Source: Candidatus Moraniibacteriota bacterium
Lineage (GTDB): Bacteria > Patescibacteriota > Minisyncoccia > Moranbacterales > GWC2-37-73
Assembly: GCA_013336225.1 (NCBI GenBank)
Contig: JAAXUC010000001.1
Location: 35,949 to 99,948, forward strand
DNA: 64,000 nt
Direction of reading: 5' to 3'
Below, one piece after another: positions 10,693 to 61,590 of the stretch. A program made the translations under genes and the position numbers. The first letter of the stretch is position 1; each line of letters opens with the position of its first letter. The notes under the pieces are model-generated. The model was not told where the DNA came from, did not search any database, and saw nothing but the letters and a program-made list of their open reading frames with translations.

Positions 10693-11763
10693 TTGGGTAT
10701 GGAAAAAAATAAGCAAAATATGGATTTCTTGCAGTCAGAGGCTTGGCGAAAATTTCAAGAAGCTGCTGGACGAAAAACCTCACATTTGGAAGGTGATGGT
10801 TTTTCAGTGAGCATCATTGAACATCAATTGCCGATTGTGGGGAAATATTTGTATGTACCAAAGGGACCAGTAGCCTCGCTTGAAGGCGAGGAATTTCCAA
10901 TTTCCAATAACCAATTTCCAATAAAATCTCAATTTCCAATTTCCAATGACCAAATAAAATGCGGAATGCGGAAATTGATTGATTTGGCTAAAAAGGAAAA
11001 TGCTGGTTGGATTCGGATTGAACCTGCTGACAAAAAAACATTGGAATCGATCAAGGAAAATATTTCAGAAAAAGTCATCAAAGCGCCACATGACATGCAG
11101 CCGCGGGAACTTTTTGTGTTGGACATCGCAAGGTCACCGGAGCAATTGCTGACTGAAATGAAAACCAAGACGCGCTACAACATTGGCATTGCGATGAAAA
11201 AAGGTGTTACGATCGATCATTCACAAACGGAAGCTGGTAAAAAGAATAAAGAATTGTATCTGCATGCATTTTTGCGACTGACCAAAGAGATGGCGGAGCG
11301 GCATGGAATTGCTGCGCACAGCGAGGAGTATTATCAAAAAATGGTTGAAAGTTTGCCCGACGAAATGCTGCGAATCTATGTGGCAAAATTTGAGGACAAA
11401 ATCATTGCAGCTAATCTGGTTCTATTTTATGGCGATACTGCGGTGTATCTGCATGGAGCTTCTGGCAGTCTGCACCGAAACTTGATGGCGCCATTTTCTT
11501 TGCAATGGCAAGCCATTTTGGACGCCAAAGAACTGGGCTACGCAAAATATGATTTTGGGGGCGTGCGTATACAAGATACAAAATACAAGATACAAAATAC
11601 AAACAAGTGGGAAGGGATTACCACCTTTAAAACGGGATTTTCGCCGAGAACAAAGCCGGTTGTGTTTCCTGGAAGTTATGATATTATCATAAATCCTCGC
11701 AAATATTGGGCATATCGTGGATTGCAGGCAGCGAAGTCGTTTGCGGTTAAATTTAGAAAATAA
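10693..11763 (+). CDS. FemAB-family peptidoglycan interpeptide-bridge aminoacyltransferase, carrying two in-frame heptamer-repeat insertions
   Basis: Conserved FemX/FemAB blocks are present (QSEAWRKFQ, KTRYNIGIAMKKG, FYGDTAVYLHGASGS, FKTGFSP). The tandem repeats at 10891-10955 (CCAATTT units) and 11568-11607 (ATACAAG/A units) are translated in frame. Confidence 0.75.
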   Translation: MGMEKNKQNMDFLQSEAWRKFQEAAGRKTSHLEGDGFSVSIIEHQLPIVGKYLYVPKGPVASLEGEEFPISNNQFPIKSQFPISNDQIKCGMRKLIDLAKKENAGWIRIEPADKKTLESIKENISEKVIKAPHDMQPRELFVLDIARSPEQLLTEMKTKTRYNIGIAMKKGVTIDHSQTEAGKKNKELYLHAFLRLTKEMAERHGIAAHSEEYYQKMVESLPDEMLRIYVAKFEDKIIAANLVLFYGDTAVYLHGASGSLHRNLMAPFSLQWQAILDAKELGYAKYDFGGVRIQDTKYKIQNTNKWEGITTFKTGFSPRTKPVVFPGSYDIIINPRKYWAYRGLQAAKSFAVKFRK

Positions 11764-11883
11764 TGTAATAAAAAATTTCGAATTTCCAATTTTGAATTTT
11801 GAATCAAATCTGAATGAATTAATGTTTAAAAATTTGAAACATTAGAAATTCATTCAAAATTCAAAATTCAAAATTTAAAATTA
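11764..11883. repeat. Palindromic intergenic heptamer-arm element, copy R3
   Basis: Arms of AATTTCGAATTTCCAATTTTGAATTTTGAA, a central AATGTTTAAAAATTTGAAACATT hairpin, and arms of AAATTCATTCAAAATTCAAAATTCAAAATT. Confidence 0.6.
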
Positions 11884-13230
11884 ATGCATAGAATCAAAAA
11901 AATTGTGCCCCAATCCATCAAGAACCTTTACCATTTGGCACAAGCTCTTACTGCTAATGTGATTTATGGTTTTCCATCTCGAAAAATAAAAGTGATTGGC
12001 ATCACTGGCACTGATGGCAAGACGACCACGGCGCAAATGATTGCGGGAATTTTGCAGGAAGCTGGAAAAAAAGTTGCCTTGGCTTCGACCATTAATTTTG
12101 TGATCAATGGAGTGGAAGAAAAGAATCTTTCACATTATACGACGGAATCAGCTTTCAAATTGCAAAAATTCATCAGACAAGCAGTTGGGGCAGGCTGCGA
12201 ATATTTGGTACTAGAAACTTCTTCGCACGCATTGGACCAACATCGCGTTTGGGGAGTGGAATATAAAGCTGCAGTTGTCACCAATGTGACCAGGGAACAT
12301 TTGGATTATCATGAAACCATGGAAAAATATCGAGCAGCTAAAAAAAGGCTTTTTGAAGTGGTAGAGAAAAATAAGGGAACAGTCATTGTTAACCTTGATA
12401 TGGAAAAACCGAAAGAGTTTTTGAATTTCAAAGTTAATAAAAAGTTTGCCTATACGACAAATAGTGAAAACCTGGATTCCCTGCCCACCGGCAGGCAGGC
12501 TGATTTTCGCGGGAATGACAAGGAAAGGGTCGGAATGATAAAAAGCGATGTGGAAATGATTCAGGCTGAGAATATCAGGCTTGGAATTGCTGGTTCTTCA
12601 TACGAAATACGAAATACGAAATACGAAATACATTTGCCAGGTGGATATAACATTGAGAATGCCCTTGCAGCATCGTGTGTGGCTCTTGGTGAGGGTGTTG
12701 GCATGGAAACGATTAAAGAGGCGCTGGCAAAAATCCGAGGCGTGGCGGGGCGAATGGAGGCCATAGAGAACGATCTGGGATTGCACATTTTCATTGATTT
12801 CGCACTGACCCCAAATGCCTTGGAAAAGCTTTATGCGGGGCTTTCTAGAGCCAAAAAATCGGGAGCAAGAATCATCGCAGTTTTCGGATCATGTGGCGAT
12901 CGCGATAAAGGCAAGCGTCCAATTATGGGCGAAGTTGTTTCGCGCTACACTGACATAATTGTTCTCACTAATGATGAACCATATCATGAAGATCCCCAAC
13001 AAATAATCGAAGAAATTGCAGTTGGAATTAAAAACAAAACCGAAAATCAGAATCTTTTCAGAATTGCTGATCGACGCTTGGCAATCGCCAAAGCTCTCGA
13101 GCTTGCCAAAGCTGATGACATAATCTGTATTACTGGCATGGGCAATTTTGAAACCATGGTGGTGGGGGATGAAAAAATTCCCTGGAATGATCGAAAAGTT
13201 GTCGAAGAAGAGTTGGCAAAAATTGCCTAA
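11884..13230 (+). CDS. murE: Mur ligase, MurE-like (UDP-N-acetylmuramoyl-L-alanyl-D-glutamate--diamino acid ligase), with a 7-aa in-frame repeat insertion
   Basis: GITGTDGKTTT is the P-loop, and the Mur ligase middle and C-terminal domains follow. A tandem ATACGAA x4 at 12599-12632 encodes YEIRNTKYEI just before the conserved HLPGG.N..NALAA block. Confidence 0.8.
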   Translation: MHRIKKIVPQSIKNLYHLAQALTANVIYGFPSRKIKVIGITGTDGKTTTAQMIAGILQEAGKKVALASTINFVINGVEEKNLSHYTTESAFKLQKFIRQAVGAGCEYLVLETSSHALDQHRVWGVEYKAAVVTNVTREHLDYHETMEKYRAAKKRLFEVVEKNKGTVIVNLDMEKPKEFLNFKVNKKFAYTTNSENLDSLPTGRQADFRGNDKERVGMIKSDVEMIQAENIRLGIAGSSYEIRNTKYEIHLPGGYNIENALAASCVALGEGVGMETIKEALAKIRGVAGRMEAIENDLGLHIFIDFALTPNALEKLYAGLSRAKKSGARIIAVFGSCGDRDKGKRPIMGEVVSRYTDIIVLTNDEPYHEDPQQIIEEIAVGIKNKTENQNLFRIADRRLAIAKALELAKADDIICITGMGNFETMVVGDEKIPWNDRKVVEEELAKIA

Positions 13231-13232
13231 CA

Positions 13233-13265
13233 AAAAATCCCCACCAATTGAGTGGGGATTTTTTA
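13233..13265. terminator. Bidirectional rho-independent terminator
   Basis: The sequence AAAAAATCCCCACCAATTGAGTGGGGATTTTTT forms a GC stem flanked by A and T runs, between convergent genes. Confidence 0.7.
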
Positions 13266-36062: not shown

Positions 36063-36125
36063 AAATTTTTAATAACTAGCCAAGTATAGCAGGTTTCTTG
36101 TGGTTAGTCAATCGGATAAAAAGGC

Positions 36126-37457
36126 TTACCTCTTTGTATTTGCAGCTGCTTTGGCCATATCCCTGAGCATTTTTTTATAATCCTTCCATTCATTTTCGGA
36201 CCAATTGGCTGGTTTTGCACTCAAAGTTGGTCCTCCTGGATGAGGATATCTGTATGGCGAGCCATAGGAACTGTTGAAAACATCATTGATCAACTCTGTG
36301 CCATTTTTGTCCAGCACGGTTTGAGTGAAATGTGCCTTGAGTGAGCCATCTGGTTGCCTATCTGTGGTATATGGTCCATCCACGGTGGTTTTTCTGCCAT
36401 CATCAGTTCCATAAAATGAGAACGTTAAAACTGTGCCTTCTATTTTTGCTTGAATGAGAATGTGATTCGGGGTGTTGTTCAAAAAGCGCAAATCTGGATT
36501 TGGAATATATATTGTTGAATCCATCCCTTGGGGATTGTAATAGGAAACGGGGTAGGCATGATTTCTGCGAGCGGTTATTTTTAAGCCGGAATAAATGGCG
36601 GCCCTGAAAGCTGTGCTGGAAACTTGGCAGACTCCACCACCAAATTCTGGTTCAGTGACATTATTTTTGATCACCAATTCAGGCAGATAGCCATGTTCAG
36701 CGTCAACTTCTCCAAGATTTTTCACAAAAGAAAATTCTTCTCCTGGTTTTATCAGCAGGCCATTGAAACGCGCCGTGGCAACTTTGATGTTGAAAACTCG
36801 ATTTTTTGGTGAGCCTTTGAAATTGGATGTGCCTTCGCCAATAAGGGCTGAAACCCCAAGGTTATTGATGTCGCCATAACTACCTTCTTTTTTGATGGAT
36901 TCAAATGGTAGAGAGATTTTTTCAGCAGTTGCTAAATCTTTTTTATTGAGGATATCGGTGATGGCCACTAAACTTTTTTCTATATCAAGTGCGACTCCTG
37001 GTTGGGGCTCTGAAAAAGTGACAACTTTTCCGTCTTCAACTTTAAATTTTGCATCAATGGAATCATGATTAACTTTGCGAGCCAAATCTTCCAAATATGT
37101 TTTGATGGCTTGAGTGTTTATGTTTGACTCCGAAGACAGTAATAGGTGACTGCGCTGGATTCTGGTCAAAGTGAGAGCACAAAAAAACTCATCCACTGGG
37201 CAGATTGTGGAATTTTCGATTTCGCTTTTAAGGTTTGGGGAAAGCGAAAAAGAAGTTGAGTGAGAAACCCAGCTATTCAGCAGGTCTTGAGAAATTGGTT
37301 CTGAATATTGATCGACAGCGATGGTTAGACTTGTTGCATTCATTGTTTCAGTTGCTGATTGCACATCTGAAGCTTGCGCAACCTGAGAGGTTACGAGCAG
37401 AAGTAGTATTAAAAAAGCTGTGTAAGAGTATTTTTGCATAGATTCAGCATACTGCAA
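36126..37457 (-). CDS. VanW-like domain secreted protein
   Basis: A signal peptide is present. The C-terminal region (GGGVCQVSSTAFRAAIYSGLKITARRNHAYPVSYY...G.DSTIY) fits the VanW-family pattern. Confidence 0.55.
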   Translation of the reverse strand: MQYAESMQKYSYTAFLILLLLVTSQVAQASDVQSATETMNATSLTIAVDQYSEPISQDLLNSWVSHSTSFSLSPNLKSEIENSTICPVDEFFCALTLTRIQRSHLLLSSESNINTQAIKTYLEDLARKVNHDSIDAKFKVEDGKVVTFSEPQPGVALDIEKSLVAITDILNKKDLATAEKISLPFESIKKEGSYGDINNLGVSALIGEGTSNFKGSPKNRVFNIKVATARFNGLLIKPGEEFSFVKNLGEVDAEHGYLPELVIKNNVTEPEFGGGVCQVSSTAFRAAIYSGLKITARRNHAYPVSYYNPQGMDSTIYIPNPDLRFLNNTPNHILIQAKIEGTVLTFSFYGTDDGRKTTVDGPYTTDRQPDGSLKAHFTQTVLDKNGTELINDVFNSSYGSPYRYPHPGGPTLSAKPANWSENEWKDYKKMLRDMAKAAANTKR

Positions 37458-37591
37458 TTTTTGGATTATATCAAGAGTGTTGCAGGTTTTAGTTTTTAGA
37501 ATTTTAATTTTTTCTAATCAAAAAAGAAGACACAGTGTCTCCTTTTCTGCAACTCTAAAGCCTAAAAGCTAAGAACTAAAAGCTGATTTAT

Positions 37592-38113
37592 TTAGAATCC
37601 TCGCACTTGAATGCGTTTAATTTTGGTGGTGTCTGCTTTCGGAAGACGAATTGTCAAGATTCCATTTTTAAGGGAGGCTTCTGCTTTGTCTGAGATGATG
37701 TCGACAGGAAGCACAACTGAGCGTGAAAAATGTCCCCAATAACATTCTTGGTAATAATAATTTTCCACACTGACAGCTTCTTCATTTTTGCGTTCACCTT
37801 TGATGGTCACCATGTCGTTGTTGATGGAAACATCAAGATCCTCGGGTTTCACTCCTGCGATTGTTGATTTGATCACAATTTCCATGTCAGTTTGATAGAC
37901 ATCGATGGTGAGTTGTCCTTCTGCATCGCTGGAAAAATTTTCTTCTTCAGCGTACATGTGTTGCTGATGCTGTTGTGGCTCAGCGCGCATGATCATTTCT
38001 GTTTCCTCTTCTTCTGCATATATTGGCATATTTGATTGTTCCTGACGTCCATCTGAATCAATCGAAGTTGATCCAGTTACACGCTCGAAAAATGATTTTT
38101 TTGTTTTTAGCAT
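37592..38113 (-). CDS. Hsp20/alpha-crystallin family small heat-shock protein with an N-terminal extension
   Basis: The C-terminal ACD ends with GILTIRLPK (compare IbpA GVLTVTLPK). The upstream block is ...DVYQTDMEIVIKSTIAGVKPEDLDV. Confidence 0.75.
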   Translation of the reverse strand: MLKTKKSFFERVTGSTSIDSDGRQEQSNMPIYAEEEETEMIMRAEPQQHQQHMYAEEENFSSDAEGQLTIDVYQTDMEIVIKSTIAGVKPEDLDVSINNDMVTIKGERKNEEAVSVENYYYQECYWGHFSRSVVLPVDIISDKAEASLKNGILTIRLPKADTTKIKRIQVRGF

Positions 38114-38201
38114 AAAATTATATTTGAACCACCGACCAAGAAGATCGCTGATTTCCCCCTATTAAAAAATTAAGCCCCATATGAATATTATATGATGATT
38201 T

Positions 38202-38780
38202 TCAGTTCTGGGCAAGCTTGCTATTGATTCTAAAAATGTTGATAAAGTTATAAAGAATTAGCATTGCAAGTAAACCTAAGATTGCATAATTCATAACAAA
38301 TGTTCTGTTTAGGATTAAGAGATTGTAGGATCCATGAAAAAAAGTTGCCACCAAGATGGTTTGCAGTATCGTACTTATTTTTTTGGGATTTTTGATTGCC
38401 ACGAAATATCCGATGATGCCAGCTGTGCCAATATGAATGATGGCAATTTCGCTCAAAATTTGAATTTCAGGCAGGGCGCCGCTGATTGAGATTAGTGCCA
38501 GTTCGGTTGCAAAAAATCCAGCTCCCATTAAAAAAGAATTCATGATGTATGATCTTTTCAGGGATAGGAGGTCGATTTTTTTGGAGATGATAATATATTT
38601 GAAAATTTCTTCAGTGCAAGCCCCAGCAATTATTAGTTGGGGAATTGAAAAAAGTTGCGAAAAAGAAATGTCAGAAACTGAGCTTGTTGACATGGAAAAA
38701 ATCACGAAAACAACCAGCTCAATGATGAGTGCGCCAAGGGCTGCAATTATTCCCCAAAAAAATGATTCTAACTGTCGCAT
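38202..38780 (-). CDS. CPBP (CAAX protease/Abi) family intramembrane metalloprotease
   Basis: A multi-TM protein with an EE-containing motif (TEEIFKY) and H-x3-N (FFHGSYN). Moderate support. Confidence 0.55.
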   Translation of the reverse strand: MRQLESFFWGIIAALGALIIELVVFVIFSMSTSSVSDISFSQLFSIPQLIIAGACTEEIFKYIIISKKIDLLSLKRSYIMNSFLMGAGFFATELALISISGALPEIQILSEIAIIHIGTAGIIGYFVAIKNPKKISTILQTILVATFFHGSYNLLILNRTFVMNYAILGLLAMLILYNFINIFRINSKLAQN

Positions 38781-38786
38781 GATTTT

Positions 38787-41420
38787 TTATGATAATGTGG
38801 CCAGATGTTTTTTGAGCTCAATAAGCTCTGCTTGTTTTTTTGCTAGTGTTTCTTTTTGCTGACTGATGACTTGCGCGGGAGCCTTGGAAACAAAAGTTTC
38901 ATTTGAAAGTCTCTCTGTCAAACCTGAAACAAATTTTTCAATGTTCTCAATTTCCTTGGTGATCTTTTCTTTCTCTTTGTCTGTGTCGATGGCATTGGCC
39001 AAATGAATGTGAAGATCAATTTCTCCCAAAGTCCTTTTAACTGAACTTTCTAATTCTGCTCCAGCTTCATTGTATTTAATTGTTTCAATACCAGTCTTGA
39101 GTCGCTTGATGAGGTCTTCTTGAAAAGCTGATTTGAGCGCATCAAGCAGGCTTACATTTTCGCAGTTCAGGCAGATGGTGATTTTTTTCCCAAGCTCGAT
39201 TTTGTTTTCGGTGCGGACATTTCTGACCGTGGTAATGATATTTTGAATCATTTCAAAATTATTTTTTCCAATTTCTAATGTTGAAAGATTGGAAATTTTT
39301 GGCCAGGCAGAAATGATGAGCATTTTTTCAATCTGGGCCAATTCCCAAATATGTTCAGTGATAAAAGGCATAAATGGGTGCCAGAGGCGCAGGATTTTAT
39401 CTAAGACATAACCAAGCACTGCTTGATTTTTTTCAAGCTTGTTTGTTTCTACATACCAATCGGCAAAATCATTCCAAGTGAATGTCTTGAGCACATCAGC
39501 TGCCATGGCAATTTGCTTGCCGGCAAAGAGCTTGTTGATTTCAGTGATGGTTGCATCCAATTTAGAAATAATCCAAGCATCAGCTGGAGTTTTCACGTCT
39601 TCGTTTTCGATATTTTCGACCAATTTGAAATTTTCTTGGCTCAGGCAAAAACGTGAAATGTTCCAAAGCTTGTTGGCAAAATTTCGAAAGGTTTCAATTT
39701 TTTCTTCATACAATCGAGAATCTTGCCCAGGAGCAGAGTCCATAATGAGGCTCATGCGCAAGGCGTCAGCTCCAAACTTATCAATCATTAAAAGCGGATC
39801 GATTCCATTTCCTCGCGATTTGGAAAATTTATGACCTTCCTTATCCAAACCAAGTCCAGTGAAGAATAAATTTTTGAAAGGAGCTTCTCCAGTCTTATAG
39901 ATCCCTAACATTATCATGCGCGCTGCCCAGAAAAAAAGCAGATCACGACCCATGATCATCATGTCAGTGGGATAAAAGTCTTCATAATCATTTCCATGCG
40001 CCTTGAGTGTCGTATATGGCCATTGATTCGAAGTGAACCAGGTGTCAAAAGTGTTTTCATCCTGCGTTAATTTTGTGCCATTGCAATGAGGACACGCTTT
40101 GGGTTTTTCCAGTGAGACAATATATTTTTCTACTCCACAAGTTTCGCAATACCAAACAGGGAATTGTGGACCCCACCAAATTTGACGGCTGATGCACCAG
40201 TCGCGCATATTGTCGAACCAATCGATGAGAACTTTTTGAAAATTATTAGGAAAAATTTCAATCTGTGCATTTTCAACAACTTTCCTTGCTTCATTTTTCA
40301 ATGAATATGTTTTGGCATCAACATTGATGAACCATTGGCTGGAAGTCAAAGGTTCGAGGATGGTTTTGCAACGCTCACAAATGGAAACGGCATGCGAAAG
40401 TTCTTCAATTTTTTCCAAGAGATGCAATTTTTCCAAATCTTTCAAAACTGCTTCGCGTGCTTCATGCACGGTAAGTCCTGCATATTTACCGCCAAATTCA
40501 GTGATCAATGCTTTTTCATCGATGATTTGAATTTCTGTCAAATTATGGTCTTTGCCAATTTCCCAATCGAGTGGATCATGCGCCGGAGTGATTTTCACTG
40601 CGCCAGTTCCAAAAGACAAATCAATGCGTTGGTCGGCAATGACGGGGATGATGGTGTTTTGCAAAGGCAAGATGATGTTCTTGCCAACCAATTTTGCATA
40701 GCGCTTGTCTTTAGGATTGACTGCCACGGCTGTGTCTCCCAGCATTGTTTCAGGCCTCGTGGTGGCAACAGTGATGAATTCTTCAGAATTTTCCAGCGGA
40801 TATTTGATGAAATATAATTTTCCAGGAGTGTCTTTGTGATGCACTTCCACATCTGAAAGGGCGGTGGCGCAGCGCGGACACCAATTAATGATTCTTTTGC
40901 CTTTATAAATCAAGCCGTCTTCATGCATTTTTACAAAGGTTTCAAGTGCAGTTTTCAGCACATCGGGGTCAAGCGTGAATTTTTCGCGTGACCAATCAGC
41001 AGAAATTCCAATCTTTTTTTCTTGACTGCGCATGTAGTTGGCGCGGTCAAGGCAGAAGGCGTAAGTTTTTTTGTAGAATTCTCCACGTCCAACTTCTTGG
41101 CGAGAGAGTCCCTCTTCGGCTTGCAATTTTTTTTCAAAAACCACCTGGGTTTGAATGCCGGCATGATCTTTGCCAGGCAAAAGCAAGGTCTTTTTGCCAT
41201 TCATGCGGGCGTAACGTCCAAAAATGTCCATAATGGTATATCCGCTGGCATGACCGATGTGCAGTTCTCCATTGGCGTTTGGCGGTGGAAGTACATTGCA
41301 ATGTGTGCCAACTGTATTTTGCAAATTGTCAGGATTAAAACACCCGCTTTTTTCCCAACGTGCATAAATCTCATCCTCAACTTTTTGCGGTTCATATATT
41401 TTTGGAAGTTCTTTGTTCAT
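38787..41420 (-). CDS. valS: Valine--tRNA ligase
   Basis: The HIGH motif (PPPNANGELHIGHA), KMSKS (KFSKSRGN), the editing domain, a C-terminal coiled coil and a length of 877 aa all fit. Confidence 0.95.
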   Translation of the reverse strand: MNKELPKIYEPQKVEDEIYARWEKSGCFNPDNLQNTVGTHCNVLPPPNANGELHIGHASGYTIMDIFGRYARMNGKKTLLLPGKDHAGIQTQVVFEKKLQAEEGLSRQEVGRGEFYKKTYAFCLDRANYMRSQEKKIGISADWSREKFTLDPDVLKTALETFVKMHEDGLIYKGKRIINWCPRCATALSDVEVHHKDTPGKLYFIKYPLENSEEFITVATTRPETMLGDTAVAVNPKDKRYAKLVGKNIILPLQNTIIPVIADQRIDLSFGTGAVKITPAHDPLDWEIGKDHNLTEIQIIDEKALITEFGGKYAGLTVHEAREAVLKDLEKLHLLEKIEELSHAVSICERCKTILEPLTSSQWFINVDAKTYSLKNEARKVVENAQIEIFPNNFQKVLIDWFDNMRDWCISRQIWWGPQFPVWYCETCGVEKYIVSLEKPKACPHCNGTKLTQDENTFDTWFTSNQWPYTTLKAHGNDYEDFYPTDMMIMGRDLLFFWAARMIMLGIYKTGEAPFKNLFFTGLGLDKEGHKFSKSRGNGIDPLLMIDKFGADALRMSLIMDSAPGQDSRLYEEKIETFRNFANKLWNISRFCLSQENFKLVENIENEDVKTPADAWIISKLDATITEINKLFAGKQIAMAADVLKTFTWNDFADWYVETNKLEKNQAVLGYVLDKILRLWHPFMPFITEHIWELAQIEKMLIISAWPKISNLSTLEIGKNNFEMIQNIITTVRNVRTENKIELGKKITICLNCENVSLLDALKSAFQEDLIKRLKTGIETIKYNEAGAELESSVKRTLGEIDLHIHLANAIDTDKEKEKITKEIENIEKFVSGLTERLSNETFVSKAPAQVISQQKETLAKKQAELIELKKHLATLS

Positions 41421-41534
41421 GTGTGATGCTAATCTGCGAATAAACGCTAATCAACGAATTGCGAATAATGCTTCAATATTTGTAATTATAGTCTTATCGT
41501 AGCAAATAAAAGGATATTTTTCAAGGAAAGGCAA

Positions 41535-41566
41535 GAAAAAAAGGAGTTGCGGCGCAACTCCTTTTT
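41535..41566 (-). terminator. Rho-independent terminator for the minus-strand gene at 41575-41934
   Basis: GGAGTTGCGGCGCAACTCC forms a stem with an A-run on the plus strand, which is a U-run on the minus transcript. Confidence 0.6.
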
Positions 41567-41574
41567 AATGGTTG

Positions 41575-41934
41575 TCATTTCAATTCCTCGAGCATTGCAT
41601 ATTGAACATCGGGCCAAAGAACATCAGATGATGCTTTTGTGAGCAATGTCTTGAATTTGGTGAGTTCATCGCCAGAGAGTGTTTCTTTGATAAATTGGAC
41701 AAACAACATTCTTGGTTGCATGCTGTCATTTTCATTGAAAACGGTTTCCAATCCACTCAAAAACTTATCAATCCTTTCTTCCGCGATATTTTTTTTCAGA
41801 TCCTCTTCGCATTTTGCCAGGCGCAACTTTAATTCAGGATCAACATTTGTCTTGGTGGCAATCTGCGTGTGATAAAGATCATCAGCAAGTTGTTTAACGT
41901 CGATATCCAATTCAACAAAATCAGTTTCTTTCAT
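41575..41934 (-). CDS. Hypothetical protein (119 aa)
   Basis: An ORF with a downstream terminator. No recognisable motifs. Confidence 0.5.
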   Translation of the reverse strand: MKETDFVELDIDVKQLADDLYHTQIATKTNVDPELKLRLAKCEEDLKKNIAEERIDKFLSGLETVFNENDSMQPRMLFVQFIKETLSGDELTKFKTLLTKASSDVLWPDVQYAMLEELK

Positions 41935-41995
41935 GGTAACCTCCTTTATTTTTTAAGCTGCTAGGATATTTGGCTGATTGTATTGTTGCACAGAG

Positions 41996-43228
41996 TTACT
42001 TCATTTTCAAATTTGCATGCGGTTGCATGGTTTTCCAAGCAGAAATTGATTTTTTTCTTTGCGCGTCTGACATTTTGTTCCAGCGAAAAGCAGCGGCAGC
42101 TGCAATCATGGCAGCATTGTCACCAGTCAAGGATAAGGCTGGGATAATATATGAAACTTCGGACAGATTTTTTTTAATAGCTTCGCCAAGTTGCGCGCGC
42201 AATTCTTTATTGGCACTGACGCCACCAGCCAGCAAAATTGTTTTTGGTTGGTGGGCTTCAGCTGCTTTGATGGTTTTTGCGACAAGCACATCCACAGTTG
42301 CTTGTTGAAATTCATGGCAGATTTCTGTAAGATATTTCTTATCTTTTAAAAGTTCTGGATGTTTTTTGGTTTCATATAGTACCGCAGTCTTGAGTCCGGA
42401 AAAAGAAAAATCATAATTTTTTTTGTTGAGCATTGGGCGTGGAAATTGTATTCCATATTTCGTATCTTGCATCCTATATGAGCCGTTTTGATTTCTGGTT
42501 TTTTCTTTTTGACATTTGTCATTTGGATCTTGAAATTTCTCAGCCATAGCTGAGACGACAGGTCCGCCCGGATAGCCAATTCCTAAAATGCGAGCGACTT
42601 TGTCAAAAGCCTCGCCAACTGCATCGTCCAAGGTTTGTCCGATGATTTCATATTGCAGATGATCTTTCATGAGAACGAGTTGGGTGTGACCACCAGACAC
42701 CACCAAGCATAAAATTGGGAATTTTATGCTTGGTGAATTTTGAATTTTGAATTTTGAATTTTGAACGATGGAAGATTCTTTTTTATTTGTAATTTCTGTA
42801 TTTCGAATTTGTTTGGAATTTAGAATTTGAGATTTAGGATTTACGCTAATGAAATTGGCGTAAATGTGCCCCTCAATATGATGAATTCCCAAAAGTGGCT
42901 TTTCCCAGAGATAGGAGAGGGTTTTGGCATAGCTAACCCCCACTAGCAGCGCTGGGATGAGCCCTGGGCCTTGAGTCACTGCAATGACATCAATGTGCTC
43001 TGGCGAAACTCCGGCCTCTCTCAGGGCAAAATCAAGCAAATGGTCGATATTTTTCACGTGCTCACGAGCGGCCAAGTTTGGCACAACTCCACCCCATTTG
43101 GCATGCAGTTTTATTTGCGAAGAAACCTCGCTGGCTAAAATTGCAAGTCCTTGAGCCGATGATTTCAAAATTGAAATTGCGGTGTCGTCGCAAGAAGTTT
43201 CAATGGAAAGTATTAGATTATTTGACAT
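41996..43228 (-). CDS. tsaD: tRNA N6-adenosine threonylcarbamoyltransferase TsaD (Kae1/Gcp family), carrying heptamer-repeat-derived in-frame insertions
   Basis: Conserved TsaD blocks are present (SIETSCDDTAISIL, GIHHIEGHI, VVSGGHTQL, GEAFDKVARILGIGYPGGP). An insertion of about 40 aa encoded by TTCAAAA/GAATTTT tandem repeats lies at 42733-42840, and a second QDTKYGIQ repeat-derived segment lies near 42405-42480. Confidence 0.85.
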   Translation of the reverse strand: MSNNLILSIETSCDDTAISILKSSAQGLAILASEVSSQIKLHAKWGGVVPNLAAREHVKNIDHLLDFALREAGVSPEHIDVIAVTQGPGLIPALLVGVSYAKTLSYLWEKPLLGIHHIEGHIYANFISVNPKSQILNSKQIRNTEITNKKESSIVQNSKFKIQNSPSIKFPILCLVVSGGHTQLVLMKDHLQYEIIGQTLDDAVGEAFDKVARILGIGYPGGPVVSAMAEKFQDPNDKCQKEKTRNQNGSYRMQDTKYGIQFPRPMLNKKNYDFSFSGLKTAVLYETKKHPELLKDKKYLTEICHEFQQATVDVLVAKTIKAAEAHQPKTILLAGGVSANKELRAQLGEAIKKNLSEVSYIIPALSLTGDNAAMIAAAAAFRWNKMSDAQRKKSISAWKTMQPHANLKMK

Positions 43229-43326
43229 ATTTATGCTATTATTGTAATATACGACTTCAATAAGGATGTTTCAGCGTAATAGTTTTCTGATGTTTTGGGC
43301 ATGTAATCGTTAAACGATTCTACCAT

Positions 43327-48123: not shown

Positions 48124-48281
48124 GTTTTTTTATTTGAGATTATTTCGTGCTTTTATTTGTATCTACAAATTTTTAATTTTTAATTTATAATTTTTAATCA
48201 AATCTAAATTTCTGAATTTTTAAATTAAGACATTGAAAATTCATTTCAAATTTCGAATTTCAAATTAAAAATTTTGGAAAT
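48124..48281. repeat. Palindromic intergenic heptamer-arm element, copy R4 (more degenerate)
   Basis: Tandem AATTTTTAATTT arms, a central hairpin, and a right arm of AATTTCGAATTTCAAATT, directly upstream of the GT4 start. Confidence 0.5.
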
Positions 48282-51828: not shown

Positions 51829-51959
51829 TAAAGCTTGCGGGCAAAATTCACAACAAAAGGGCTATTTCAATTGAAATAGCCCTTTTTTCTATGACGGTAT
51901 TAAAACACTGGACAAAATATATATTTCGTTTATAATTGGAAGAGTTAGAAATTGAGAAA

Positions 51960-54779: not shown

Positions 54780-55307
54780 ATGCAAGAAGATATCGATAAT
54801 AAGGAGTATGATTTTGAAGCCACACTTGTTTTTGTGTTCAAGGGCAAAAAAGTGCTTTTGGCGCCAAAAAAGGCCAAGATTGGCAAAGATCGTTGGAACG
54901 GCTATGGCGGTGAAGTTGAGCCGTGCGACCCTTCCATCGAATTTCGAGCAACACTGGAAATGTGGCAGGAATGTGAAATGATCTGCGCTGAAGAAGATCT
55001 TAAACAGGTCGCTATCGGATATTTTTCCAACATCAAGGATAGTGGCGAAATATTTGTCTGCAAAGTGCACGTCTTTCTGGCTGAAGAAAAAAAATGTGCT
55101 GGAGTGCCAACGGCAACAAATGAAATGGGAATGTCGGAGTGGTTTGAGATAGGTGAACTGCCTTTTGAGAAAATGATGGCAGCTGACCGCCATTGGATTC
55201 CTGAGATTTTCAAGGGCAGAAAAATCATTGTCAGGGCAACACTGAGAAATGGACAAGCAGAATTGGTTGGCAAAGTTGAGATTCAAGATGTGGAATCTTT
55301 TGAATAA
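54780..55307 (+). CDS. NUDIX hydrolase family protein (degenerate Nudix box)
   Basis: GYGGEVEPCDPSIEFRATLEMWQEC resembles G-x5-E-x7-R-E-U-x-E-E-x-G-U with substitutions. Confidence 0.5.
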   Translation: MQEDIDNKEYDFEATLVFVFKGKKVLLAPKKAKIGKDRWNGYGGEVEPCDPSIEFRATLEMWQECEMICAEEDLKQVAIGYFSNIKDSGEIFVCKVHVFLAEEKKCAGVPTATNEMGMSEWFEIGELPFEKMMAADRHWIPEIFKGRKIIVRATLRNGQAELVGKVEIQDVESFE

Positions 55308-55345
55308 AGGCCTGACTTAAATATTAAGTCAGGCCTTTTAATTTA
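55307..55345 (+). terminator. Rho-independent terminator
   Basis: AAAGGCCTGACTTAAATATTAAGTCAGGCCTTTTAATTT. Confidence 0.6.
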
Positions 55346-55507
55346 AGAAAAAGAAATGGTGGACAAAATCAAAAAAATGTGCTAGAATTGAATAGTTGTA
55401 AAAGACGGGTGATTCTCACCCGTCTTTTTTATTATTATTAATTAAATTTTTTAAGATAATCTCAATCAAGTGATCGCTTTGGCGGAATTTGACGAGACAA
55501 AAACAAA

Positions 55508-61538: not shown

Positions 61539-61558
61539 AGAATTATTTCAGTATTTTA

Positions 61559-61590
61559 AAACAGCCTCTTGCGAGGCTGTTTTTTTTTGG
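61559..61590 (+). terminator. Rho-independent terminator
   Basis: AAAACAGCCTCTTGCGAGGCTGTTTTTTTTTGG. Confidence 0.7.

Follow-up and report, generated by a model that had tools for sequence, protein, structure and literature searches.

Heptamer slippage and fold-back copying as the probable source of in-frame inserts in a Moranbacterial tsaD

How does a core tRNA-modification enzyme come to carry, within its reading frame, peptides encoded by repeats of seven nucleotides? The question is raised by tsaD on a 64,000-nt stretch of contig JAAXUC010000001.1 from a Candidatus Moraniibacteriota bacterium (hereafter, the window means this whole stretch). A first-pass annotation had claimed that this gene, which specifies an enzyme of N6-threonylcarbamoyladenosine (t6A) synthesis, is expanded in frame downstream of its HIEGH motif by a peptide of tandem-repeat origin, that a second repeat-derived segment lies further on, and that the enzyme is otherwise whole. 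We conclude that the inserts are probably translated low-complexity DNA that grew in place, by slippage of heptamers together with quasipalindrome template switching, rather than foreign sequence that was inserted.

The tsaD coding sequence occupies 41996-43228 on the minus strand and specifies 410 aa, as judged by the open-reading-frame (ORF) list, Pfam, PDB, and AlphaFold (AF2) modeling with Foldseek. The PF00814 profile scored 288 bits on the product against a cut-off of 24.8 (E=8e-86), and a PDB sequence search returned E. coli TsaD (4ydu) at E=1e-73, with the TsaD structures of E. coli, Salmonella, Thermotoga, and Aquifex together spanning 1e-70 to 1e-74. The protein is identical to one at NCBI that is encoded on a 166-kb contig of a metagenome-assembled genome (MAG), and its best homologs are 351-490 aa long. 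Four motifs are invariant among 75 aligned orthologs: HHIEGH (residues 116-121), SGGHT (178-182), WGGVVP (45-50), and GDN (369-371). Residues S178-H181 of the SGGH turn and G46-P50 of the WGGVVP tip are thus also invariant, and the metal ligands H117, H121, and D370 and the Lys/Arg pair of alpha5 (K210/R213) are kept in all 75, the roles of these motifs being taken from PMC13276492. The claim of a full-length TsaD with intact catalytic blocks therefore stands. An AF2 model built on the 75-ortholog alignment reached a predicted local distance difference test (pLDDT) score of 85.8 and a predicted template-modeling score (pTM) of 0.85, with a confident core. Foldseek gave target-normalized template-modeling (TM) scores of 0.88-0.91 to 3zet, 4wq5, and 4ydu, with 0.89 for 3zet and 4ydu, so that the modeled two-domain ASKHA fold superposes on solved TsaD.

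The alignment to 4ydu is broken into three blocks (query residues 6-132, 168-230, and 259-389) by two inserts. Insert 1 (ins1; aa 131-167, 42728-42838 on the minus strand) encodes the heptamer-derived peptide PKSQILNSKQIRNTEITNKKESSIVQNSKFKIQNSPS, lies between HIEGH and FPILCLVVSGGHT as had been proposed, and accounts for about 36 aa without counterpart in 4ydu (about 35 in the pairwise alignment). It is predicted to be disordered, with pLDDT below 50 at residues 132-164. Insert 2 (ins2; aa 231-258, 42455-42538, minus strand) encodes KFQDPNDKCQKEKTRNQNGSYRMQDTKY in degenerate heptamers, and its roughly 28 aa stand opposite 5 residues in E. coli TsaD. The AF2 model makes it a beta-hairpin extension of moderate confidence, with strands at 240-245 and 252-256 (pLDDT 52-72). 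The second repeat-derived segment is thus present, but it amounts to ins2 as a whole and not merely to the 8-aa motif QDTKYGIQ first noticed there. Both inserts are real in-frame expansions relative to the solved TsaD structures. The parts of TsaD reported to contact tRNA are the alpha1-alpha2 hairpin, the alpha5 Lys/Arg pair, the SGGH turn, and alpha7 (PMC13276492). Placing the inserts on the structure, a check that the first-pass annotation had proposed, puts both of them, to judge by the motifs, outside these elements.

The DNA of ins1 had been described as tandem repeats over 42733-42840. Its seven-nucleotide period does run throughout, but only 32 nt are perfect and the remainder is degenerate. 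Tandem Repeats Finder (TRF) identified (TGAATTT)4.6 at 42734-42765 with 100% matches; on the coding strand (minus) this is a (TTCAAAA)4.6 array of period 7 that encodes QNSKFKIQNS, and its 4.6 perfect copies lie head to tail, where three would make a tandem array. A degenerate tract on the same strand, running AAATCCT, AAATCTC, AAATTCT, AAATTCC and onward, covers 42790-42843 by TRF and a scan for the unit family, with TRF itself marking period 7 at 42818-42843. In the ins2 region QDTKYGIQ is encoded by the heptamers ATACGAA, ATATGGA, and ATACAAT at 42445-42469 (minus strand; family scan, register, and translation); the QDTKYGIQ stretch itself spans 42446-42469, a narrower interval than the 42405-42480 first given. 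The attribution of this segment to a femX-like tract family holds, as it belongs to an AT(A/T)C(A/G)AA family common to tracts in a femX-like gene (11567-11606) and a murE-like gene (12594-12635).

Autocorrelation extends the period beyond the perfect array. At period 7 it reaches 0.62 in ins1, 0.53 in ins1 without the perfect array, and 0.53 in ins2, against 0.34 in shuffles (p<=0.001 for the inserts; p=0.0005 both for ins1 without the array and for ins2) and 0.23-0.29 in tsaD cores. Because the signal is present in both inserts and not in the cores, each insert is heptamer-derived over its whole length, with only 32 nt still perfect. The orientation of the units is constrained as well. Seven is coprime with three, so any run of three units passes through every frame, and a (TGAATTT)n tract would thereby have a TGA stop in each; accordingly, all in-gene tracts of the AAATWCR family in the window lie in the sense orientation. 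Where genes carry the opposite orientation, they do so as the stop-free variants AATTTCC and AATTTCG, which yield the peptides ISNFQFP and ISNFEFR. A peptide period of 7 aa (for example, KYEIRNT) would suit a strand-turn-strand pattern, and such tracts may substitute for, or lengthen, beta-hairpins that immediately precede FPRPM in TsaD and LPGG in the MurE-like protein.

Both edges of ins1 are inverted copies of tsaD's own flanking codons. At the 3' junction (42701-42735, minus strand) the gene reads CACCAAGCATAAAATT ccc AATTTTATGCTTGGTG, a perfect 16-nt stem with a 3-nt loop, in which the outer arm is formed by the native I-L-C-L-V-V codons and the inner arm, translated as S-P-S-I-K-F, by their inverted copy. 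This stem ties for the longest perfect hairpin in the window and is one of few within genes; the other long perfect hairpins are nearly all intergenic and terminator-like. It dominates the predicted mRNA fold of ins1 (z=-5.5), which is otherwise unstructured. At the 5' junction (42839-42865, minus strand) ATTTACGCCAAT ttc ATTAGCGTAAAT forms a 12-nt stem with one mismatch, its outer arm being the native I-Y-A-N codons and its inner arm their inverted copy, read as I-S-V-N (-9.4 kcal/mol as RNA, z=-2.7). Inverted copies of the flanking codons at the edges of ins1 point to growth in place.

We compared this gene with 80 loci (1.26 Mb) from species-level genomes of Candidatus Moranbacteria (Moraniibacteriota), within Parcubacteria/Patescibacteria, measuring spacer lengths in 117 homologs and palindrome classes in 81 orthologs. 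The first-pass annotation had recommended checking relatives for the insert, and both sites proved variable in length. The spacer from HxEGH to VSGGHT, the site of ins1, ranges from 18 to 77 aa (19 in E. coli), and that from GYPGGP to FPRPM, the site of ins2, from 17 to 82 aa (15 in E. coli), the shortest states being of canonical length. The inserted peptides draw on a small vocabulary: ISNFQFPIS, KQIQNSK, IENCELKIENS, YEIRDTKYEI, and ISDKISV. In all 80 loci the blocks on either side of the inserts share a single open frame, and neither these loci nor the window have stop codons or frame breaks within the inserts. No out-of-frame allele occurs among the 80 consensus genomes, assemblies in which minority alleles within populations are invisible. 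Together with the confident core model and the predicted disorder of ins1, the open frame in 80 of 80 relatives suggests that the predicted t6A enzyme tolerates the inserts. In the closest relative (L081, 79% aa identity) ins1 is 72 nt shorter and has neither the array nor either palindrome; its ins2 is largely conserved, and part of ins2 (NQNGSYR..) is conserved within one subclade.

Tandem arrays in these loci are predominantly heptameric and predominantly in tsaD. We counted 111 arrays of period 7 and 45 of period 14, against at most 10 at any other period from 4 to 15. Although tsaD makes up 7.3% of the bases, it holds 79 of the 111 period-7 arrays, a 31-fold concentration (0.86 vs 0.027 per kb); outside tsaD period 7 still leads, with 32 arrays against at most 10 for other periods. 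Within tsaD the arrays cluster at the ins1 and ins2 sites, with a few near aa 286 and aa 330-375. Their units are diverse (AAAATTC, AATTTCC, AATTTCG, AAAAGTC, AAATCTC, AAAGTTC, AAATCCC, ACCACCT, ATATGCG, and others, dozens in all at the tsaD sites), most arrays are perfect, and their lengths have a mode of 30-32 nt, about 4.4 units, regardless of unit sequence. Inverted heptamer arms, (AATTTCG)n ... (CAAAATT)n, occur within the tsaD insert of four loci (L001, L004, L013, and L026). Autocorrelation in the expanded ins1 (53 orthologs) and ins2 (48) has its maxima at period 7 (0.50 and 0.49, respectively) and at period 14 (0.43 and 0.44), whereas the core of the same orthologs gives 0.23 at period 7 and shows the codon period only. 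The insert DNA, though in reading frame, lacks the period-3 autocorrelation of the core (0.24-0.25 vs 0.29), which fits an insert peptide under little selection.

The junction palindromes recur in relatives, each in part of the sample: the 5' class in about 29 of the 81 orthologs and the 3' class in 5. The 5' palindrome occupies two registers, with its loop 18 nt or 12 nt after the EGH codons. In the +18 register it is TACGCTAATTTTATC tcc GATAAAATTAGCGTA and reads Y-A-N-F-I-S-D-K-I-S-V, which accounts for the ISDKISV motif of the vocabulary; the +12 register reads I-Y-A-N-F-I-G-V-N. Counts of +18-register pairs are bimodal, with 12-15 of 15 pairs formed in 21 of 81 orthologs and 1-8 in the others. 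Five of the 15 pairs are changed on both sides, which none of 500 shuffles reached, and at the third position of the Ala codon the pair is U-A in 13 sequences, C-G in 4, and G-C in 3. In the 21 sequences 94% of cells pair, against 28-41% in slid controls, but since this set was chosen for pairing it is the bimodality and the double-sided changes that count as evidence, not the percentage. Among the non-Watson-Crick cells we found no enrichment of G.U on the mRNA strand, a pattern that fits a DNA-level process. When a neighbor-joining tree is built from the conserved core, the palindrome classes prove scattered over it, and sister taxa differ.

Structures of flank plus inverted flank also occur at the 5' junction of ins2 in relatives (NVAAWAA, AISATAEMA). 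A third tsaD insert, at L004:10864-10900, L013:7084-7120, L019:8606-8642, and L015:917-951, consists of a GC-rich perfect palindrome, TGGGAGCTCAACTCCC acaaa GGGAGTTGAGCTCCCA, with arms of 15-16 nt around a 5-nt loop, that encodes GSSTPTKGVELP. In L015 both arms differ together. We considered that this palindrome might be mobile and rejected the idea, as it was seen in tsaD only and nowhere else in the 80 loci.

Arrays and palindromes are physically linked. In 14 sequences of the 12-nt register the heptamer tract starts directly after the inner arm and in phase with it, and its unit is similar to the final 7 nt of that copied arm: after CGTAAAT comes CCTAAAT, CCCAAAT, TCAAAAT, CAAAAGT, or TCGAAAC. 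Identity between unit and inner arm averages 4.64 of 7 positions in phase and 1.88 of 7 out of phase. The first three units of ins1 in the window are 6/7, 5/7, and 5/7 identical to the inner arm, again in phase. From these matches we infer that the inner arm of the palindrome probably seeded the array. The native KFPIL codons, AAATTTCCAATTTTA, themselves form two heptamers, and in L074, which has no insert, they also make a palindrome of 8 nt; (AATTTCC)n is among the commonest array units, and repeat content is thereby tied to tsaD's own sequence and not to an imported element.

We propose that two replication errors would have acted repeatedly at both sites. Strand slippage in a 7-nt register would create, homogenize, and delete arrays. 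In quasipalindrome template switching the nascent strand would fold back and copy itself, so that the inner arm, which is free to change, would be rewritten after the pattern of the constrained coding arm, and such rewriting would explain why the palindromes are perfect and seem to covary with synonymous changes. Within an ORF the surviving events would be inner-arm corrections or synonymous changes of the coding arm, which could mimic compensatory evolution. Selection would act only as a filter on frame, stop codons, and peptide tolerance. Total length would have to stay a multiple of 3; units would have to be stop-free in three frames, hence TTCAAAA and not TGAATTT, or the TCG and TCC variants in the opposite orientation; and the peptide, rich in K, N, S, Q, and I, would have to form a disordered loop (ins1) or an extended beta-hairpin (ins2) away from the tRNA-contact elements.

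Several observations weigh against this proposal. A neutral process acting uniformly would leave the excess in tsaD unaccounted for: arrays are denser there even than in the intergenic DNA of the same loci (about 17 arrays in about 10% of 1.17 Mb). Nor does simple slippage predict an array-length mode of 30-32 nt. We considered a frame effect, with growth in steps of three units, as its cause and set it aside: intergenic arrays, of which there are few, look flatter in length. The palindromes are perfect across lineages only 50-68% identical and so could reflect a selected DNA or RNA structure. Slippage and template-switch events are deduced here from assembled sequences. Finally, seeds in present-day native sequence do not predict where inserts occur (Fisher p=0.23-0.78). 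Native seeds, namely the KFPIL codons AATTTCCAATTTTA and the NFI codons AATTTTAT, were accordingly rejected as the cause of the hotspot, showing no link to insert presence, and we keep the idea solely as an account of unit identity and phase.

Heptamers of the same family lie elsewhere in the window. The 21-mer GAATTTTGAATTTTGAATTTT, allowing up to 3 mismatches, has 15 matches against 0.09 expected, in tsaD and in intergenic elements (at about 459-568, 1115-1217, and 11780-11883), which bears out the claim that ins1 has its unit in common with such elements. Period 7 is the sole enriched short period of the window, with 7 arrays against 0 at periods 5, 6, and 8-12, and a scan for the AAATWCR family found 17 tracts where shuffles gave 0.65. 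Four intergenic elements of 115-130 nt (441-570, 1099-1218, 11772-11885, and 48160-48275) lie between co-directional genes. Each has a left arm of (GAATTTY)n, a common core (..TTAATGTTTCAAA..), and a right arm of (RAAATTC)n; they align with 74% mean column identity and fold into long hairpins (dG -15 to -29 kcal/mol, z -2.3 to -5.2). They may be similar to terminators or to MITEs (miniature transposable elements with inverted repeats). Tracts of the family occur in frame in unrelated genes of the window (tsaD, femX-like, murE-like, and valS), in loops or regions unaligned to PDB homologs. The femX-like gene (10693-11763) carries (AATTTCC)n at 10892-10960 and (ATACAAR)n at 11567-11606, and the murE-like gene (11884-13230) a perfect (ATACGAA)4.6 array at 12594-12635 that encodes YEIRNTKYEIH. 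We searched the femX-like and murE-like tracts for junction palindromes and found none.

Could ins1 and ins2 instead be decayed copies of a small mobile palindromic element, MITE-like and belonging to the intergenic hairpin family? Rickettsia palindromic elements (RPEs) show that palindromic DNA can insert in frame (PMC10969869), the right arms of the intergenic elements have the very TTCAAAA unit of ins1, and at 111 nt ins1 is near them in size. The paired inverted arms in the tsaD insert of four relatives and the in-frame tracts of the femX-like, murE-like, and ValS genes could be read in the same way. Yet ins1 is not a copy of the intergenic element: it lacks the core and the inverted arms, its two tracts run in the same orientation, and only the heptamer unit is common to both, with no multi-copy consensus beyond it. 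The window's ins1 has neither terminal inverted repeats nor overall palindromy, and in place of a target-site duplication its junctions hold inverted, not direct, copies of the flanks, with the array in phase. Orthologous sites carry dozens of different units that are usually unmatched elsewhere in the same locus, the GC-rich palindrome of the third site was seen in the 80 loci only in tsaD, and no transposase is linked to the inserts. We therefore regard a mobile origin as unlikely. An artifact of assembly, a collapsed or misjoined repeat, or an untranslated spacer (an intervening sequence or translational bypass) is hardly credible. Repeats can mislead assemblers and the source is a MAG, but the perfect tract, at 32 nt, is far below sequencing-read length, frame and downstream motifs are intact, and the protein at NCBI is identical. 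More than 100 independent assemblies, those of the relatives among them, have length-variable inserts of the same kind at the same two sites, stop-free and in frame, so the artifact that the first-pass annotation had named as its refutation did not materialize. We estimate, roughly and not by computation, that an untranslated AT-rich spacer of 111 nt would lack in-frame stops less than 10% of the time and that one such spacer in three would have a length divisible by 3.

A third possibility is that the tracts or hairpins are selected and functional, as a phase-variable switch, a t6A-sensitive sensor of ANN codons, an mRNA or DNA structure, or a functional loop. Contingency loci classically have a non-triplet repeat inside an ORF, and perfect arrays imply recent slippage. 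A device specific to tsaD, either an ON/OFF or dosage switch for t6A or a t6A-dependent feedback on TsaD through ANN codons, would explain the 31-fold concentration, above intergenic density, the perfect arrays, and the compensatory changes in the palindromes. About half of the ins1 codons are ANN by our own count, and t6A suppresses frameshifting at tandem ANN codons (PMC7430679). The subclade-conserved part of ins2, modeled as a beta-hairpin, could likewise be functional. Against this, all 80 loci are in frame with no OFF allele seen, and comparable tracts are found in ValS and in cell-wall enzymes, for which an OFF state would be either lethal or without purpose. The hairpins, with their scattered presence and their absence from L081, lack conservation, they show no G.U tolerance on the mRNA strand, and the inserts combine very low model confidence with missing codon periodicity. 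RNA-level selection on the hairpins was rejected because G.U is not enriched on the mRNA strand, as was a programmed frameshift signal: the 3' hairpin does come after the array, but the unit is not of the X XXY YYZ form, the zero frame is open, and the 3' hairpin is limited to 5 of 81 orthologs. Selected function in general is thus improbable, and the tsaD-specific device in particular decidedly doubtful.

Slippage and template switching in place would have parallels in several known systems, and of its ingredients heptameric repeats, in-frame repeat or palindromic DNA, and template-switch mutagenesis are already known. Heptameric repeats are over-represented in many bacteria, with slippage related to the polymerase footprint proposed as the cause, and Xanthomonas GGGAATC and the Nostoc/Calothrix heptamers (short tandemly repeated repetitive sequences, STRR) prefer about four units (PMC4692102). 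The tsaD arrays are like these simple sequence repeats in their 7-nt unit, over-representation of period 7, preference for about four units, and probably variation of unit and length between close relatives, and the intergenic elements of the window, like some of theirs, are hairpins of inverted array pairs. Theirs, however, are G-rich, mostly intergenic, and under-represented in coding sequence, whereas here the arrays are A/T-rich, 79 of 111 lie in frame within tsaD, and they are coupled to flank-copying palindromes. The four-unit preference of the G-rich Xanthomonas and Nostoc heptamers has been attributed to G-quadruplexes, which A/T-rich tsaD units cannot form. RPEs are in-frame palindromic MITEs in protein-coding genes of Rickettsia (PMC10969869) and likewise place short palindromic or repeat DNA, translated in frame, at fold-compatible positions of unrelated housekeeping genes. 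They differ in having a consensus of about 150 bp and a conserved peptide and in spreading by insertion; the tsaD inserts have only a 7-nt unit in common with other loci, one that varies between species, are bounded by inverted host codons, and vary continuously in length.

When the nascent strand copies itself in quasipalindrome template switching, an imperfect inverted repeat is turned into a perfect one (PMC7202029). As in the Ripley model, studied with thyA and lacZ reporters in E. coli, the inner arm of the tsaD junctions tracks synonymous changes of the coding arm. The reporter hotspots are known as sites of single events, whereas the events here would be recurrent and lineage-wide, in palindromes of 12-22 nt that lie within an ORF and are coupled to heptamer arrays. 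Perfect non-triplet tandem repeats within coding sequence are also the mark of phase-variable contingency loci, but here the host gene specifies a core tRNA-modification enzyme, the repeat has a low copy number (about 4.5), and no out-of-frame allele was seen in 80 genomes. In AT-rich genomes such as that of Plasmodium falciparum, housekeeping proteins carry low-complexity inserts rich in Asn and Lys. Those inserts are similarly fast-evolving and slippage-driven, in surface loops of conserved enzymes; they are mainly codon or homopolymer repeats, whereas here three 7-nt units make a 7-aa peptide, and a unit read in all three frames brings a constraint on stop codons and orientation.

A literature search for heptamer or repeat inserts in the Candidate Phyla Radiation (CPR), in Moranbacteria, or in TsaD found nothing relevant. 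As far as we found, what is new is the combination, the concentration in one core enzyme across a candidate phylum, and flank-copying palindromes within an ORF. The sequence-level picture is one in which 7-nt slippage and fold-back template switching would rebuild loops of core enzymes, with the frame kept, in small CPR genomes. It explains recurrent odd peptides such as ISNFQFPIS, IENCELKIENS, YEIRDTKYEI, and ISDKISV, which will confuse alignments, orthology calls, and structure predictions for Patescibacteria, and it identifies insertion-tolerant sites in TsaD. The loci also offer a natural data set of hundreds of independent events bearing on the preference for a 7-nt unit and about four copies, which earlier work on such repeats leaves unsettled (PMC4692102). 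Should the clustering of arrays in tsaD turn out to be selected, repeat instability would be linked to control of a universal tRNA modification.

The site directly after PVWY in ValS, whose gene adjoins tsaD, is a second recurrent hotspot. Relatives carry in-frame heptamer arrays there (AACTCAC, ACAGTTC, AAAATTC), at L001:5522-5551, L011:13147-13178, L020:12990-13020, L049:7584-7611, and L079:6966-6999; the ValS of the window has no array at this site. A protein of 720-780 aa, co-oriented with tsaD, also carries heptamer arrays at one site in relatives (L029:1801-1830, L030:2169-2201, L037:5446-5464, L038:1380-1400, and L060:4423-4534), which in L029 and L060 comes after ALLTNSY. In the window the second tract of the femX-like gene encodes IQDTKYKIQNT directly after a conserved YDFGG motif, and the murE-like array directly precedes LPGGYNIEN in a stretch unaligned to solved MurE structures.

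Plus-strand GC skew is positive throughout the window (+0.14 overall), falling to +0.02 at 36100-43230, and by this measure the minus-strand block of tsaD and valS apparently lies on the lagging strand, head-on to replication. Flank skew in the orientation of tsaD is negative in 71 of 74 relatives, so that tsaD seems to run against the direction of replication throughout the lineage; for a core gene this is unusual, and it may bear on the hotspot. In-frame arrays of the flanks fall in genes co-oriented with tsaD 12 times and in opposite genes twice, from about three gene families only. No correlation between insert length and skew emerged (Spearman rho=0.15, p=0.20), and the leading strand carries the tracts of femX and murE. 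For these reasons, the small number of gene families included, replication orientation was not adopted as the cause of the hotspot; the orientation signal is a hint only, confounded by synteny and coding-strand bias.

Beyond the heptamers, the window contains 36 perfect hairpin matches (about 16 loci, as overlapping loop registers were counted apart) against 0-5 in shuffles. Perfect intergenic hairpins of 11-16 nt with the layout AAAA-stem-loop-stem-TTTT occur at 13232-13264, 31969-31997, 41538-41566, and 51855-51886, with further examples at 55306-55338, 55400-55428, and 61558-61583. These hairpins look like bidirectional intrinsic terminators.

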